Of a stretch of DNA of 64,000 nt, positions 14,459-22,461 are shown in pieces. The translations under genes and the position numbers were made by a program. Location: NCBI GenBank assembly GCA_963664115.2, contig CAXWPJ010000004.1:1-64000 (forward strand). The letters are read 5' to 3'. Below the pieces are notes generated by a model. The model had not been told where the DNA came from, ran no database searches, and saw only the letters and a list, made by a program, of their open reading frames with translations. This DNA is from Terriglobia bacterium. GTDB taxonomy: Bacteria; Acidobacteriota; Terriglobia; 20CM-2-55-15. Position 1 is the first letter of the stretch. Every line of letters starts with the position of its first letter.

Positions 14459-15343
14459 CTAATCAGGCCGGGGTCGACTTGTTTCCTGTTGCATCAGCCG
14501 TGCTTTGATTTCCCGAAGCGCGTCCATTGCACGGGCGTGTGGATCGTTTGTGCCGGGGCCAGCACTTATTCGCTCTTGAACCAAGCGGATGCGCTCGGCG
14601 GTAGCCGGGTGACTTAGAAATATTGCGGGAGTTTCCCACTGCTCGATCGTCTCCTCTGCTTGCATCTTTTCCAAAAACGCAAGCAGCGACTTCGGATCGT
14701 AACCCGCCTTCTGCATGTACTGCATTGCACGTTGGTCGGCGTCTATTTCACGAAGCGATCGAGAAGGAGTCAGCGTCGTGGTGCGATAGCCTTCAAACAC
14801 GTTCAGTCCGTCGCCTTTGGGAGATAGTAAGACGATGGGATCTGCATCGTTCCTCAAACCGTCCCGCGCCACGACGTGGGCGATCTCATGCGCCACCACC
14901 CCGGCAATTTCGGCTTCGTCGTCCACTGCGAGAATCAAACCGCTGCTGACGTAAAGAAAACCGCCCGGAAACGAGACGGCGTTCACTTCCGTGGCATCGA
15001 CGACCTTTATTGTGACCGGAACCGTGACGTCCGATTGGCTTGCAAGACGCTGGGCGATACGGTCCACGTATTCCTGTACGGCAACATCTGTAACAATCTC
15101 GATCTCCCTTTCGAACCGGCGCGCCGCCCGGCTCCCGACTCTCATTTCCATAGCTTTGGTCAGGGTCCGAACCCGCATGTCCTCCAGATCGGGAACGGGG
15201 TTCTGCCTCTCCGCGGCAAGGGGTATCGGGGGGAACAAGACAAGGAGCACACCAGAAACGAGGCAGGTCCAAACCATCCGCCCGGGAAGGCATTGTTTCC
15301 ACCATCTCCTCAGCATCGGCACGCTCCCCAACCCAAACAACAA
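14459..15343 (-). CDS. M48 family metallopeptidase (start codon uncertain)
   Basis: VNA...PGG.LYV..GLI, E.AGVVAHEIAH, EIDAD, AGYDP, FLSHP...ER. Confidence 0.85.
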   Translation of the reverse strand: MLFGLGSVPMLRRWWKQCLPGRMVWTCLVSGVLLVLFPPIPLAAERQNPVPDLEDMRVRTLTKAMEMRVGSRAARRFEREIEIVTDVAVQEYVDRIAQRLASQSDVTVPVTIKVVDATEVNAVSFPGGFLYVSSGLILAVDDEAEIAGVVAHEIAHVVARDGLRNDADPIVLLSPKGDGLNVFEGYRTTTLTPSRSLREIDADQRAMQYMQKAGYDPKSLLAFLEKMQAEETIEQWETPAIFLSHPATAERIRLVQERISAGPGTNDPHARAMDALREIKARLMQQETSRPRPD

Positions 15344-15439
15344 GGGATTGATTCAAAGGGATCTTAGGTCACAGTTGCGGCAGAATCAATATCGTTCTCT
15401 TCTCCTTGCGTGTTCGAGCTGGCAGCTCCCGGGCCATGG

Positions 15440-15590
15440 TTCCATGTCGGCGCCCCACCACTACCGGGCCGGGCTGGTCGGGGCGAAGCTTGCCGACGAG
15501 TCCCGTGTGCTTGACTGTGGTCTGAATGTCCAGGCCCAGACTCGCAATGGCTATCGCAAATCATTCCGGCGGTGCGGGCCCGATGCCGAC
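15440..15590 (-). pseudogene. Degraded M20 amidohydrolase fragment
   Basis: Across frameshifts reads RTAGMI..H..SLGLDIQTTVKHTGLVG.LR...PGPVV..ADM. Confidence 0.5.
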
Positions 15591-15949
15591 TCATAGACGC
15601 CTTGTGTCTCTCCGGTTGGTGATGGTCCGTTAGTCTGTTGATCCCAGTTCAGTGCCCTTAGTCTGCACCCTCACAAAAGTGGTTCATTTCAGAAGTCACC
15701 TCGTCATCGAATTGGAACATCTCCTCCAACGCCTCGTGGACAGTCTTTCCGTTCACAGCGATTAGTTTGTAAATTGAGTGATCCATATCGGCATGTGCCG
15801 GGTTTCGGGTCGTCATTATGTGGGTGATCGTGGGCGTGGTAATCCCTCGTTGCTAGGCACACTTCGCCCTTGCGTGTTTTGAAGGGAATCAGATACAGTG
15901 GAAGTGGTTGTTATTCGCACTCTACCTGATCCATTCAGGTTCGATTTTC

Positions 15950-15987
15950 CAGAAGGCCCGCTCTACGAAAGCGGGCCTTCTGCTTTT
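15950..15987 (+). terminator. Intrinsic terminator-like hairpin
   Basis: cagaaggcccgct-ctacgaa-agcgggccttctg followed by ctttt. Confidence 0.6.
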
Positions 15988-16017
15988 ACCAGCACAAGTA
16001 TATCAAAAGCCAACCAT

Positions 16018-16503
16018 CTAGCGGATCGGAACGGCACTGAAATCGTCCGGCCCGAACTCAAGTGCACCGACCGAGAAGGTCTTTGTATCTTTCGGGCCAG
16101 TTTGGATCAGGACTTGCCCAGTGAACTCCTGACCGGAAAAATACCACGGAAACAACTCATCCAGGAACAGTGACCGAGATCCGTTTGTCGGAATCCGTAT
16201 CCGATTGCCTTGCATTCCATATCCCTCTGCATTTCTTAGGTCGACGAACACCGAAATCTCACTGTCTTCGGCATTACGGAGAGCCAGTCCAGTTCTGAAC
16301 GGACCCGCCCGATATGGCACCATCCACGCCTTTTTGTCCTGTGTTGCGGCGATGCCGGCGGTTCCGAGGCCTGCAATGCTGAATCGCGCAAAACCGGACA
16401 ATCCGGACAATAGTGACTCAGAAAGTACTCTGGCCGATCCGAGGAAATCGTAAGCGTTCGGTGGCAGCGAAAACGTCAACGTCCCATAGGGCGTCAGATT
16501 GAA
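16018..16503 (-). pseudogene. 3' part of an interrupted trypsin-like protease gene (C-terminal beta-rich domain)
   Basis: Joins in frame to 20311-20840 (..ENEDYTM|FNLTPYGTLTF..) when 16504-20310 is removed. Confidence 0.8.
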
Positions 16504-17046
16504 GTGTGCTACAGCAACGCGAATGGAGGTTCAGGATGAACTGAAAGACGCGGGAGAAGCTGCATGAGAGATGGAGGACTATGGCCCTCCGGGGCCGGCC
16601 TGCAGGGGCTGGCCTCAAACCACCCTGAGCGGCGAATCCTCGTCGTGAGCGTCAGGGAAAAGGCGTGAATAACGCGTCAGGTATGGATCGAGAAGGCGAA
16701 CACCAGTGAACCATTATTCAAGTGTCGAAAGTGCCTTAGATGACATCAAAACCGGAGAGGTGATGTTCCTCCGGGATGAGCCTATCGGAAACCTGTTTAC
16801 TGGGTGGGCGGTGTCCGGCATAGAGATGGCGCGAGTTCGATCCGGGCTCTTGTGCGGAACTGCAGGAACCTGCGACTGTGATGTCAAGGGAGATGGCCAA
16901 GAGAAGCCCTCTCAAGGTCGGAGTACCGAAGCGCAGCGCGGGGGCGGACGGACCCGTAATAGCGATGAAGGGTCTGTAATGGATCTGGAGCAAAGGGGTC
17001 CGATTGTCTTGCTGGAATCATCGTCAACCCGAGAGGGGAGGAGCGA

Positions 17047-18309
17047 ATGACAACAGCAAAGTCGTTTGACATTCCGAAGCAGCTTGTGTGGGAGGCATAC
17101 AAGCAGGTTAAGGCCAATGGGGGCGCTGCAGGCGTGGACGAGCAATCCCTTGCAGAGTTTGAGGAAGAGCTCGGGAACAACCTGTATCGGATCTGGAATC
17201 GGATGGCCTCGGGGAGTTATTTTCCACCCTCGGTCAAGGCCGTTGCGATTCCAAAGAAGTCGGGAGGCGAGCGGACGCTCGGGATTCCCACCATCTCGGA
17301 TCGGATTGCGCAGACGGTGGTAAAGAGTGTTCTGGAGCCTCAGATTGATCCTCATTTCCATGAGGATTCCTACGGCTATCGGCCCGGCAAATCGGCGCAT
17401 CAGGCATTGGCGGTAACCCGCCAGCGCTGCTGGTGGCATGATTGGGTGCTGGAGTTTGATGTCCGGGGTCTGTTTGACAATATCGATCACCAACTCTTGA
17501 TGAAGGCGGTTCGACATTATACGGACTGCAAGTGGGTACTGTTGTACGTGGAGCGCTGGCTGACTGCGCCGTTGCATACAGAGGACGGGAGGTTATGCAG
17601 GCGCGAGCGGGGGACTCCGCAAGGCGGAGTCGTTTCGCCGCTGCTTTCAAACCTGTTCCTTCACTATGCGTTCGACCGGTGGATGGCAACTCACTTTCCC
17701 AGCATGCCTTTCTGCAGATACGCCGATGACGGACTGATCCATTGCCGCAGTCTCAAGCAGGCCGCATACATCCGAGAACGGTTGGAGTGTCGGTTGAGGG
17801 ACTGCGGATTGGAGCTTCATTCCGATAAGTCCAAAGTGGTTTACTGCAGGGATATCCACCGGCAGGACGAGCATGAGTCCATCCAGTTCGACTTCCTCGG
17901 CTATACGTTTCGGCCGAGGCGTTCAAAGGACCGATACGGTCGTGTCTTTGTGAACTTCACCCCGGCACTGAGCCGTGTGGCTGCCAAGGCCATGCGGCAG
18001 ACCGTGCGTGGGTGGCGGTTACAGCTGAAGAGCGACAAGTCGATCGAAGATCTGGCTCGAATGTTTGGGCCAATCATTCAGGGGTGGATGAACTACTACT
18101 GTCGGTTTCATCCGTCCGCGTTTCGACCCGTCGCCGACCACCTGAATCGGGCGTTGGCACGGTGGGCCATGCGGAAGTTCAAGAGGTTGCGAGGTCATCG
18201 GCGCCGTTCACTCCATTGGGTTGGAGGGGTTGCGCACCGCCAGCCGGGCTTGTTCCCGCACTGGCGGGCTGGCTTCGTACCGTCGGTTGGGACAATGGGA
18301 GCCGGATGA
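17047..18309 (+). CDS. ltrA: Group II intron reverse transcriptase/maturase, no endonuclease domain
   Basis: RT0 GAAGVD, R.LGIPT..DRI.Q, SYGYRP, GTPQGG..SPLL.N, RYADD, FDFLGY, X domain. Confidence 0.95.
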   Translation: MTTAKSFDIPKQLVWEAYKQVKANGGAAGVDEQSLAEFEEELGNNLYRIWNRMASGSYFPPSVKAVAIPKKSGGERTLGIPTISDRIAQTVVKSVLEPQIDPHFHEDSYGYRPGKSAHQALAVTRQRCWWHDWVLEFDVRGLFDNIDHQLLMKAVRHYTDCKWVLLYVERWLTAPLHTEDGRLCRRERGTPQGGVVSPLLSNLFLHYAFDRWMATHFPSMPFCRYADDGLIHCRSLKQAAYIRERLECRLRDCGLELHSDKSKVVYCRDIHRQDEHESIQFDFLGYTFRPRRSKDRYGRVFVNFTPALSRVAAKAMRQTVRGWRLQLKSDKSIEDLARMFGPIIQGWMNYYCRFHPSAFRPVADHLNRALARWAMRKFKRLRGHRRRSLHWVGGVAHRQPGLFPHWRAGFVPSVGTMGAG

Positions 18310-18340
18310 GCTGAGAGGTTCACGTCCGGTTCTAAGAGGG

Positions 18341-20278
18341 TTGCGCCTTGAAAGCGCATGAAGTCTAGTCGCCTGAAATGGCGCCCGTGGCAAAGCTTAG
18401 CCCGCAGCCACGAACCGAGTCTTGCGTGGGGGCCGGTAACGGTCACTGCGAAGCGTAGACAGGGAGGGAGTAGGCCGGAACGCAAGTGAACGGAAAGATA
18501 GCCCCGAAATCGATCGTGGTTGAAGTAGCCGACCTTGTCTCTCTATGGGGAAGGCGGAATCGCAGGGCGTGCAATGGCAAGCGTTCTGGGGTGCTTCCGG
18601 GGTTCGTACCGCCGGCATATAACTGAGAGATTTCATGGGAACAAGGGAGATCCGTCAGGCTCAAGCGGAGCTTGTAGGGTTGGACAAGCCCACAACGTGA
18701 GGACAACCCGAAGGCCTGGCGGAAGTCAGACTGACTGATAGTACTCCGAGGTCGGGAGAACCGATCACATGGGGAAGCGGTCAGCGGAAGAGGAATTGTT
18801 CAAGGGAAACATGGGCTCCATTCAATGGGAGGATTCGGCCCTCTATACAACGAGAGGAACTGCCAGTCATGGAAACGAAACTGGAACAAATAGCAGCGAA
18901 AGCTCGGAGTGAACCCAAGCTCCGGTTCACATCGCTGGCGCATCATGTCACCCGAGAGAGGGTGTGGAAGAGCCTTTGTGCGATTCCACGGAACTCTGCT
19001 CCCGGATGTGATGGCCAGAGAGTGCCGGAGGCGAAGGAAGAATTCGGGGACTGGGTGGAGCCGATGCTCGAATCGGTACACCGGAAGGGATATCGCGCAC
19101 CGCCGATTCGGCGAGTGTATATCCCCAAGCCCGGCAAACAGGAGAAACGTCCCCTGGGCGTGCCTTGTGTTCAAGATCGGGCCCTTCAGCGCAGCGTGGC
19201 CGAGGTGCTGACAGCCATCTACGAACAGGACTTCTTGCCTTGTTCTTTTGGTGGTCGGCCTGGGCTGGGTGCGCACTATGCACTGGCAACCCTGCATGAG
19301 GTGATTGCTGGGCGCAAGGTGAGTTGGGTGTTGGAGGCAGACCTGAAGAACTTTTTCGGGAGTTTAGACCATGGATGGCTACTCCGCTTTGTGGAGCATC
19401 GAGTCGGAGATCCGCGGATCATCAGCCTGATTCGACGATGGTTGAAGGCGGGGGTGTTCGAAGACGGAGAATTGCATCCCAACGATGAGGGAACCCCACA
19501 GGGTGGGTCGATCAGCGTTCTGCTGAGCAATCTGTACCTGCACTATGTGCTCGACCTGTGGTTTGACCGGATGGTCCGGCCACACCTGAAAGGTGAAGCC
19601 TATCTGGTGCGGTACATCGACGACTTTGTGGTGTGTTTCCAATATTGGGACGATGCGCTTCGTTTTCAGAACGTGCTGCGCAAGCGATTGGGAAAGTTTG
19701 GGCTGGTTCTGGAACCGACAAAGACAAAGCTCGTTGAATTCGGTCGCTTTGCTCAGCGGGATGCGGGCAAGCACGGGAGAAAACGTCCAGAAACGATCTA
19801 CTTTCTGGGCATGACCCTGTACTGCTCGCAGAATCGCAAAGGCAATTTCCGGGTGGGATTGCGCACTGAGAAGTCTCGACTTCAACGCAGTCTGGCCCAT
19901 CTACGCGATCTGATGAGACGAATGCGTCACTTGCCGGTCCGGGAGCAGGTTCAGAATCTGAATCGGGTCTTGCGTGGTCACTACGCCTACTACGGCATCG
20001 CCGGAAACTTCCGGGCCCTCCAGCACGTTGCTCGGGTCGTGGAGCGTTACTGGCGCAAGATGCTGAGCAGCCGGAGTCGCGCTGGTTACGTCCGGTGGGA
20101 GGTATTCAACCGGATTAAGACGCGCTTTCCGTTGCAGCGGCCCAAGCTGGCGCTTCCGTATCGGGAGTTCCAGTCTCTTGCTGTGTTGTGAATCCGTTTC
20201 TGAAGAGCGTAGTGCGGGAAATCCGCACGCTACGTTCTGTGGGAGCCGGAGGCGGGTGACCGCCTCCGGCGACCCGGT
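18341..20278 (+). mobile_element. Group II intron (class E/F-like); inner intron of the twintron
   Basis: Starts TTGCG, ends ACCCGGT; DV agagcgtagtgcgggaaatccgcacgctacgttct at 20204-20238; DVI with bulged A at 20272; removal rebuilds the outer DVI. Confidence 0.88.
18869..20191 (+). CDS. ltrA: Group II intron reverse transcriptase/maturase
   Basis: FTSLAHH, RPLGVP...DR..Q, GTPQGG.IS.LL.N.YLHYVLD.WF, RYIDD, L.GH..YYG. Confidence 0.95.
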   Translation: METKLEQIAAKARSEPKLRFTSLAHHVTRERVWKSLCAIPRNSAPGCDGQRVPEAKEEFGDWVEPMLESVHRKGYRAPPIRRVYIPKPGKQEKRPLGVPCVQDRALQRSVAEVLTAIYEQDFLPCSFGGRPGLGAHYALATLHEVIAGRKVSWVLEADLKNFFGSLDHGWLLRFVEHRVGDPRIISLIRRWLKAGVFEDGELHPNDEGTPQGGSISVLLSNLYLHYVLDLWFDRMVRPHLKGEAYLVRYIDDFVVCFQYWDDALRFQNVLRKRLGKFGLVLEPTKTKLVEFGRFAQRDAGKHGRKRPETIYFLGMTLYCSQNRKGNFRVGLRTEKSRLQRSLAHLRDLMRRMRHLPVREQVQNLNRVLRGHYAYYGIAGNFRALQHVARVVERYWRKMLSSRSRAGYVRWEVFNRIKTRFPLQRPKLALPYREFQSLAVL

Positions 20279-20310
20279 CCTGGAGGTGCGATTCCTCCGG
20301 GCTACTCACC

Positions 20311-20840
20311 CATGGTGTAGTCTTCGTTCTCGAGAAGATCAACACGGGTGCCGTCGAGGTCAAAGAATCTAATCTCTGCGGAGCCGCTTGCCATTCCCCG
20401 CGCATTGGAGATCACGAGTTCGGTGCCGATACCTTCGACAGAGGCGATGATCGGGAAGTAAAGGGCTTCATTGTACTGATTGTTTGTAGTCATGGGTGCA
20501 TCGTCCAGAGGAACAAACTGACGGATCCAGTCGTGGATGGACCCGACACGGGTGTAGACGGAAACGACCGGGACGCCCGATTCCGCCGACCGCCCCAGGA
20601 TCGAAGCGACGCCCACCTGGGCCCATCCGTCCGGGGTCGACACCAGAAGCGGACTCCCGCTGTCCCCGCTGTTGATCCCCTTCCCGGGTGCGCCGGCGCA
20701 GAGTGTGCGCTCATGGACAACCTCGTCTTCGCTGGCGAGGGCATACTCCCGCCGGCAATCCTCCGGGGTCGACAATGGGATATCGACCCTCCGGAGACCG
20801 TCGCTCCACTCGTTGTTTTCCTTCCGCCCGTATCCCGCTG
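20311..20840 (-). pseudogene. Trypsin-like (S1) serine protease, central fragment; 5' part removed by IS256
   Basis: AGYG, LCAG, GDSGSPL, W.QVGV.S, VYTRV....DWI. Confidence 0.85.
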
Positions 20841-22461
20841 GGTTATGTTTCAGAGTTTCTGCAAAAAGGCCCTGAAATAGGAAGGGGCCAAGGTATCTCC
20901 GAAAAGTTGGTAACCAACAACTTTGAAACGAAGGAGATGAACCGATGGCCCGAACTAAGATTAAGCGAAAGGGCGTGGATTGGAAAGAACTGTTAGGAGA
21001 GGAAAAGGATCTGCTGAAAAGCGTCATGCAGGAGATGGTTCAGGAAATTCTCGAGGCGGAGATGGAACAGACCGTGGGCGCGGTCAAGAGTGAACGAACA
21101 GGAGGTCGCACCGGATATCGGAGTGGGTATTACGAGCGGGATCTGGTCACGCGAGTGGGCAAGCTGGAGCTGCGCGTGCCGCAGGACCGAGCGGGCCGGT
21201 TCAGCACGGAAGTGTTTGAACGCTACCAACGCAGCGAGAAAGCCTGGGTGGCCAGCTTGGCCGAGATGTACGTACAGGGCGTGTCGACGCGCAAGGTCAA
21301 AGCCATCACCGAAGAATTATGCGGGCATTCGTTTTCGGCCAGTACGATCAGCCGGATTAATAAGACACTGGACACGGAGCTGAAAAAGTTTGCAACGCGA
21401 GGATTGGAGGAAGAATACCCGTACCTGATTCTGGATGCGCGCTACGAGAAGGTGCGCCAAGACGGGGTCATCCGGAGTCGAGCGGTCCTGGTGGCGATCG
21501 GAATCAACTGGGACGGCCGGCGCTGTGTCTTGGCCGTGGAACTGGCGGGGCGGGAAAGCACGACCAGTTGGCGGGAGCTCCTGTTGAACTTGAAACAACG
21601 CGGCCTGTGCGGCGTGGAGTGCGGCGTGACCGACGATCATCCGGGGTTGAAGAAAGCCATCGCAGAAGTCCTTCCGGAAGCGATCTGGCAGCGCTGCTAC
21701 GTTCACTTTCTGAGAAACGCATTGGATTATCTACCGCGCAAAGGCGATGACGATTGCCTCCAGGAACTGCGTTGGCTCTACGACCGACGGAACGTTCAGG
21801 AAGCGCTGCAGGATCTGGCCGCATGGTTGAACAAGTGGGGGCAGAAATATCGAAAACTCTGCAACTGGGTCGAAGACAGCATCGACGAGACGCTGAGCTT
21901 CTACACACTGCCGCTTCAGCATCACAAGCATATGAAATCCACCAATATGCTGGAGCGGCTCAACGAAGAGATCAAGCGGCGAACGCGCGTGGTGCGGATA
22001 TTTCCCAACGCGGCCAGCTGTCTGCGTTTGATTCGAGCGCTGACCACCGAGACGCACGAGAACTGGATCGAAGCGATCCGTTATTTGAACATGGATCTGT
22101 TGAAGGAACACAAAAAGGACTGGCACCGTCAGACGCCGGCCGTCTCAGCGCGTCAAAACGGGCCGACCCAAGGATCGGCTTCGAAGCCGATCGTCGATTA
22201 CAGGGCATCCTCGGGCTAAGAACCGCGGTGGAACACTTTCTAAGGAGCAAAAGGAATAAAAAGAACCAAAAAGAAAGAGCCACAGAGGCCTGATGGAAAT
22301 GACGCCTCAGAGGAAATCCGCAAAAGACACGGATTCCCTCTGAGCCTTGGAAAAGCTTCGCCAAGAACACTCAGCTTTCCCACATTCCCACAGGCCCGAC
22401 GGCGACAAATAAGAACTGAATGTTTCGGAAATACTTTTTGCAGAACTTGACGCACACAACT
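20841..22461 (+). mobile_element. IS256-family element
   Basis: Imperfect ~28-bp TIRs sharing ttctgcaaaaag; no TSD. Confidence 0.8.
20945..22219 (+). CDS. IS256-family transposase
   Basis: GYRSGYY.R.L.TRVG.LEL.VPQDR, MY.QGVSTRKV, LDARYEKVR, WQRC.VHF.RN, STN.LERLN.EIKRR. Confidence 0.95.
   Translation: MARTKIKRKGVDWKELLGEEKDLLKSVMQEMVQEILEAEMEQTVGAVKSERTGGRTGYRSGYYERDLVTRVGKLELRVPQDRAGRFSTEVFERYQRSEKAWVASLAEMYVQGVSTRKVKAITEELCGHSFSASTISRINKTLDTELKKFATRGLEEEYPYLILDARYEKVRQDGVIRSRAVLVAIGINWDGRRCVLAVELAGRESTTSWRELLLNLKQRGLCGVECGVTDDHPGLKKAIAEVLPEAIWQRCYVHFLRNALDYLPRKGDDDCLQELRWLYDRRNVQEALQDLAAWLNKWGQKYRKLCNWVEDSIDETLSFYTLPLQHHKHMKSTNMLERLNEEIKRRTRVVRIFPNAASCLRLIRALTTETHENWIEAIRYLNMDLLKEHKKDWHRQTPAVSARQNGPTQGSASKPIVDYRASSG

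Follow-up and report, generated by a model that had tools for sequence, protein, structure and literature searches.

A class E group II intron clade positioned at the domain V-VI junction of other group II introns

Why does one group II intron lie inside the branch-point helix of another? The question is raised by positions 16504 to 20310 of a 64,000-nt stretch of a Terriglobia bacterium genome (GenBank assembly GCA_963664115.2, contig CAXWPJ010000004.1, positions 1 to 64,000; hereafter the window). An earlier note, made from the letters alone, described a twintron here, with one intron encoding a reverse transcriptase (RT) inserted in domain VI of another, and proposed that the inner intron targets the conserved domain V-VI junction of other introns. 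Both proposals are upheld by the present analysis. The support is good for placing the inner intron in a class E clade that has specialised on the catalytic tail of its fellow group II introns. This clade very probably homes 8-9 nt past the host domain V, using exon-binding site 1 (EBS1) against host domain VI and, likely, EBS2 against the 3' strand of domain V.

The nesting is genuine, since one complete intron lies within another and its removal restores the outer one. The outer, host intron (16504..20310, plus strand; GTGTG at its start, ACTCACC at its end) is interrupted at 18340/20279 by the 1938-nt inner intron (18341..20278, plus strand; TTGCG...CCCGGT), which enters the 5' strand of outer domain VI, 8 nt past domain V. 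Rfam detects two D1-D4 motifs (16573-16682 and 18376-18610) and two domain V-VI matches (18297-18373 and 20203-20278) on the plus strand. Both introns have a domain V with the catalytic triad and a domain VI with a bulged A: in the outer intron, domain V occupies 18299..18332 (AGC triad) and the rest of domain VI 20279..20310, with branch A20304, while domains V and VI of the inner intron occupy 20203..20278, with branch A20272. As the earlier note had observed, deleting 18341-20278 in silico rebuilds a paired domain VI, here of 13 bp, from which A20304 bulges out at a distance of 7 nt from the 3' end. The claimed pairing of the inner loop CUCUCU (18539..18544) with AGAGGG just before the insertion, the intron-binding site 1 (IBS1; 18335..18340), also holds at 6/6 positions, one of them G-U, and bases 18336-18340 of this target also supply the 5' strand for the basal helix in outer domain VI. 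The outer 3' end is placed at 20310 because the minus-strand gene that hosts the twintron reads in frame across the empty site only with that end; an end at 20309 is ruled out, as the frame is then lost.

Both RT frames are open and come from different lineages, in agreement with the earlier note. The outer protein (420 aa, YADD motif; 17047..18309, plus strand) and the inner protein (440 aa, YIDD motif; 18869..20191, plus strand) are 31% identical, are encoded in domain IV of their introns, match PF00078 and PF08388, and score 414 and 321 bits against TIGR04416 (cut-off 300); a Pfam scan finds no endonuclease (HNH) domain in either. With class names after PMC3552965, the RT trees assign the outer intron to class D and the inner one to class E. 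The outer RT is sister to that of RmInt1 with a Shimodaira-Hasegawa-like approximate likelihood ratio test (SH-aLRT) support of 100, in small trees where class D had a single reference; it matches the RmInt1 protein at 54-55%, and the outer intron aligns with the RmInt1 5' region end to end. The inner RT groups with S.me.I4 at a support of 99, in a tree with few reference classes. The inner intron is not of the IIC type, which has a class C RT, a CGC triad, a short EBS1 and insertion at terminators, whereas the inner intron has an AGC triad, a 5-6 bp EBS1 and a class E RT. Table_3 of Miura 2022 enters a 72%-identical member of the inner family and its host as separate class E introns. The outer loop aligned with RmInt1 EBS1 shows no clear pairing with the outer 5' exon, and a search of viral contigs with the outer RT gave no match.

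Other copies in the same genome (G000) provide the first evidence for targeting. Two further full copies of the inner intron, with 2 and 3 differences and identical ends, are each found within domain VI of another intron remnant that has no RT, at 8 and 9 nt past domain V. The condition set beforehand, that other copies might sit at unrelated sites, was checked by tabulating their flanks; all three full copies follow a host domain V, at the same site in three different hosts. Recent mobility is implied, because these dispersed copies are near-identical. A partial fourth copy (G000:C10:406400-408420) lies in a scrambled stretch with an open reading frame (ORF)-less class D-like intron, inner fragments and a duplicated downstream flank, which looks like a collapsed filled and empty allele. 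This stretch, together with public contigs that mostly show the empty allele, would fit an assembly chimera between repeats as the origin of the nesting. Such an artefact is nevertheless very improbable: the three copies are flanked by distinct sequences and differ at 2-3 positions, two of which occur in the window copy only, the boundaries are precisely those of the intron and show EBS1 pairing, a 59-nt contig spans the inner 3' junction, and dozens of unrelated genomes share the arrangement, isolates included.

Two other groups of introns in this genome are uninvaded. Three near-identical ORF-less class D-like introns (G000:C12:16365-16970, 19488-19962 and 563816-564425) contain no inner intron and have A at +1, whereas the targets of the inner family have G or C there; this is a lead only. 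A third RT-encoding intron (G000:C5:37760-39700, minus strand) has a long domain VI, and the nucleotides that follow its domain V do not fit EBS1.

Empty alleles show the outer intron without its guest. Of 40 related genomes, one, G021, carries an outer-intron homologue (83-87% identical) in which an intact domain VI directly follows domain V at the junction (fold z = -4.8). In contigs of the public runs X1 and X3, 18340 is followed directly by 20279 (30 letters on the shorter side), and at the same empty junction contigs of runs X1, X3 and X4 show the outer sequence as a loose end preceding 20279. The library type of these three runs is not on record, and even cover of the flanks suggests DNA. 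From these empty and filled alleles, the locus therefore likely varies in nature, with the outer intron present first and the inner one added afterwards. Outside support for the filled junction at this locus is marginal, a point against the nested account: it consists of the one 59-nt X3 contig at the inner 3' junction (29 + 30 letters), just short of the bridging criterion. The contigs of RNA runs X16 and X20, which cover the locus partially and through relatives only, hold no spliced joint for it; this absence does not count against splicing. In a separate observation, a 2.2-kb insert splits the RT gene of the outer-intron homologue at its PQGG codons (L099, G021:C44:167544-169776) and encodes a 563-aa minus-strand ORF that begins like a serine recombinase.

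The same preference extends across the family. The family set combined the best 80 of 374 GTDB relatives (67-93% identity), 2 of 63 plasmid records and the three own copies; in 61 of these 85 rows the 5' end could be read and the flank measured 46 nt or more, and 24 were dropped for contig ends, truncation or because no 5' end was found. A strict test required domain V to end 8 or 9 nt before the insertion site. It was passed by 51 of the 61 flanks (41 at 8 nt, 10 at 9 nt), against a background of 855 in 200,000 random genome positions (0.4%), and by inspection 57 of 61 sites follow a domain V, including 6 of the 10 strict misses. The fixed distance is that from the end of domain V, at 8 nt and sometimes 9, and the branch A was rejected as the fixed reference; relative to the base opposite the branch A, insertion falls 1-2 nt further on and varies with the host. 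The family forms one clade in quick trees (SH-aLRT 100), and its 58 labelled loci include 30 in Pseudomonadota and 23 in Acidobacteriota. Spread by way of a landing pad is likely, because nearly all relatives in two phyla share this site in other introns.

Targeting of this kind is not a general trait of class E. The control set held 21 more distant class E-like introns (37-50% identity), of which 18 had a readable 5' end; a single genome contributed 4 of these copies, and 3 more are closely related to S.me.I4. None of the 18 sits after a domain V. As a side observation, the S.me.I4-type class E introns L083, L084 and L085 all begin after a similar CTACACCA motif, which resembles the end of an insertion sequence (IS).

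How the site is recognised can be read from linked changes in intron and host. The loop at 18539-18544 is EBS1, and it changes in a compensatory manner with the host sequence. Positions 18540 and 18542 form, with target positions -2 and -4, the strongest covarying pairs among all domain I columns; C-G, U-A and G-C are all seen, and the covarying positions show 14-15 changes on the tree. Mean EBS1 pairing is 4.58 of 5, against 3.63 after shuffling, a level reached in 0 of 10,000 shuffles (65 of 69 aligned rows), and the result holds for 30 unique combinations. The independent tree pairs (4-6) show the expected direction or a tie, none the opposite. Together with the three own copies and the 51 to 57 of 61 family sites, these compensatory changes bear out the proposal that the inner intron targets the domain V-VI junction of other introns.

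The candidate for EBS2 is UCGA(U/A)C at 18510..18515, which likely reads the 3' strand of host domain V. It is predicted to pair with target positions -12 to -7, and in the window the outer domain V strand accordingly holds the likely IBS2 (18329-18334). Position 18514 covaries with -11: with A at 18514, -11 is T in 19 of 19 rows, and with U it is A in 24, G in 8, T in 10 and C in 1 of 43 rows. The association has an uncorrected Fisher p of 5e-9 (62 rows) and the peak mutual information (0.45), with 12 changes on the tree and 7 independent pairs, none opposite (median p 0.125). An unnormalised covariation scan had missed this candidate, which emerged after the 9-nt register was corrected. Placing EBS2 at CCGACC (18529-18534) is disfavoured, as that hexamer overlaps the EBS1 stem in part and has a lower mean pairing.

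Several results weigh against this account of the target. The independent pairs never run opposite but are too few (4-7 pairs, median p 0.125), so that p<0.05 is unreachable. For the EBS2 candidate, the register of 7 of the 62 rows was placed by hand, pairing at the window site is just 4/6, 10 of the 43 U-type members are mismatched at -11, class C-type hosts pair poorly (2-2.5/6), and an alternative hexamer (18476) equals it in mean pairing. No covarying EBS3 position was found, +1 being G in 66 and C in 10 of 76 rows. The C11 copy in G000 pairs weakly with EBS1 (3.5/6), and of the 61 family sites 3 lie outside introns and 1 is followed by a domain VI alone. Because EBS2 pairs at 4/6 here and poorly in class C-like hosts, protein contacts or the reading of a hairpin may contribute.

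Insertion at a fixed 8 nt from a stem-loop would indeed fit a protein that reads the site mainly as a DNA hairpin, with domain V folded in single-stranded DNA, as IIC introns do at terminators; EBS1 alone would then set the splice site, and the EBS2 signal would be a by-product. The use of class C-type hosts despite their poor EBS2 pairing points the same way, as do the off-target site L023, which has a weak hairpin at the same distance, and the dispensability of EBS2-IBS2 for IIE self-splicing in vitro (PMC3753933). However, the sole variable EBS2 base tracks -11 with Watson-Crick polarity, exactly where mutual information peaks. Moreover, the off-target sites L043 and L055, which have no domain V hairpin, retain G at -12 and show pairing to EBS1 or EBS2, and the 9-nt register follows EBS1. 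Recognition mainly as a hairpin is considered unlikely, and base pairing through EBS1 and, likely, EBS2 is the preferred reading of the target.

The range of hosts is broad. It includes class D introns, class E introns, the clade itself, and introns whose domains V-VI are putatively class C-like and CL-like, judged by consensus shape. Among the 46 hosts with enough flank, the RT is intact in 11, a remnant in 10 and absent (within 2.6 kb) in 25. The Sinorhizobium meliloti host is RmInt1, with 99% protein identity over residues 106-419 and the same domain VI; at least 80% of this junction is covered by 11 of 103 matching plasmid records. In genome G337, clade members are nested in clade members, giving double and triple arrays. 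G335 carries one host in four identical copies, two filled and two empty, and G336 has two filled host copies and no empty one.

Further insertions were seen within members of the family. At the 3' end of L045, the member's own domain V-VI junction is taken by a different element, which may represent another lineage with this target; it starts at the same position or immediately beside it. L101 (G002:C2:665800-667400, minus strand) has a 1.57-kb insert in its own domain V loop, holding an ORF-less class D-like intron, and a second, 0.9-kb insert at the position of window 18742/18743, where L100 has an insert of 1.8 kb.

We infer the following steps of retrohoming from where the intron sits, how widely its clade shares that position, the empty alleles and the compensatory EBS1-IBS1 changes. 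An RNA-protein particle would reverse-splice into DNA at the domain V-VI junction and, having no endonuclease, would use primers from the replication fork, as described for the endonuclease-less RmInt1 (PMC5894124). Sub-lineages would retune EBS1 to the host class: CUCUC for GAGAG, GAGGG or GGGAG, CGCUC for GAGCG, CCCGC for GCGGG and CCCCC for the 9-nt register. Such a target would be on offer wherever a genome holds a group II intron or its remnant, mostly away from essential genes. It would also be renewed with each insertion, because the intron's own domains V-VI carry the same site.

The order of splicing would follow from the shared bases. In the transcript, 18336-18340 could serve either as inner IBS1 or in the helix that holds the host branch A; the two pairings therefore exclude each other, and inner-first splicing is likely for the host lariat. 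A normal host lariat would thus likely form only after the inner intron has left, as the earlier note had inferred. On the other side, the 5' strand is needed for the basal helix around the branch A but not for folding of the upper 8 bp of domain VI, and hydrolytic splicing or excision of the whole twintron may occur.

Targeting could be real and splicing nonetheless unordered: the host might excise with the inner insert folded or by hydrolysis, twintrons might move whole, or the antisense copy might be untranscribed. Identical host-plus-inner pairs at two loci per genome (L001/L005 and L062/L063; 0 differences in the inner intron) would suit this scenario, as would the self-sufficient upper helix of domain VI. 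So would the antisense orientation of the window copy, where a promoter scan of 15300-16600, a weak test, found no plus-strand promoter-like site. The requirement of the basal helix for the IBS1 bases argues against it. Filled and empty copies of one host also coexist, fitting separate invasions, and the inner and outer introns of Thermosynechococcus elongatus move separately (PMC2882425). Unordered splicing is considered improbable, and removal of the inner intron before formation of the host lariat is the favoured order.

The twintron itself splits a minus-strand gene (16018..20840), in antisense orientation, that encodes a trypsin-like domain and a domain without a Pfam match. An IS256-family element (window 20860-22300; 424-aa transposase) severs the 5' part of this gene. 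Many contigs of G000 carry a repeat that contains a GC-rich hairpin and is present in dozens of copies (for example C2:208491 and C9:145482); it is likely a multicopy insertion element.

In Euglena plastid twintrons, inner introns lie in domain V or VI at single sites. Homing into other introns is already established by several systems, each differing from the present clade. One parallel is the RYADD homers B.th.I3, M.a.I5, UA.I3 and P.l.I2, which insert into the RYADD codons of other RT genes (PMC2504315). Like this clade, they are related introns without an endonuclease whose IBS1/IBS2 is a conserved motif of other retroelements, and twintrons result. Unlike this clade, they belong to group g2 (B.th.I3, PMC3552965) rather than class E and target the RT frame in domain IV; the present family does not insert at RT active-site codons but at the ribozyme core, 8-9 nt past domain V. 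Therefore ORF-less introns and remnants also serve as hosts, 25 of 46 having no RT within 2.6 kb.

TeI3 in TeI4 of T. elongatus (PMC2882425) shares recent, repeated insertion at a conserved site in several intron copies, but its inner intron is ORF-less, its site lies at the host ORF start in domain IV, and it concerns one species and one intron family. Tr.e.I7/I8 of Trichodesmium (PMC4649490) likewise combines two RT-encoding introns of different type, and inner-first splicing was shown there in vivo; it involves a single domain I site, and no targeting lineage is described in the available part of that source. The Methanosarcina acetivorans arrays (summarised in PMC4424553) share repeated homing into introns, nested arrays and a perpetual homing site, but the homing there is, by the title of the original, into intron ORFs and not domains V-VI. 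With class E introns such as S.me.I4 (PMC5894124, PMC3753933), the clade shares an RT-maturase without endonuclease, an alpha-prime-type stem-loop and an extra Id3 bulge, whereas S.me.I4 and 17 other distant class E-like introns occupy non-intron sites.

More generally, the commonest neighbours of group II introns are other group II introns (PMC7306698). The available parts of PMC5572947, PMC7049729, PMC7306698, PMC3245105, PMC8643678 and PMC12584367 mention no domain VI-targeting lineage. No account of a bacterial lineage that targets the domain V-VI junction emerged from the literature search; its coverage of key twintron and class E sources was partial, and a prior mention is possible. Automated surveys drop or split twintrons (PMC4028801; PMC8919778), so the pattern is easily missed; a table in PMC8919778 enters one such pair as two separate canonical introns.

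Collectively, these findings extend the targeting strategies of bacterial group II introns by a lineage that is directed at the ribozyme core of its fellow introns, spans different classes and phyla, and records host switches in its compensatory EBS changes. A bolder view, held only tentatively, is that the clade may be a generalist hyperparasite, which would read the unchangeable strand of domain V, retune EBS1, gate or shut off the mobility of its hosts, RmInt1 included, and so act as a natural anti-intron agent that forms self-renewing nests. The natural insertion in Sinorhizobium RmInt1 offers an established system for asking whether one intron controls the splicing and spread of another, and it also bears on how competition between the branch helix and the EBS1 pairing orders splicing.

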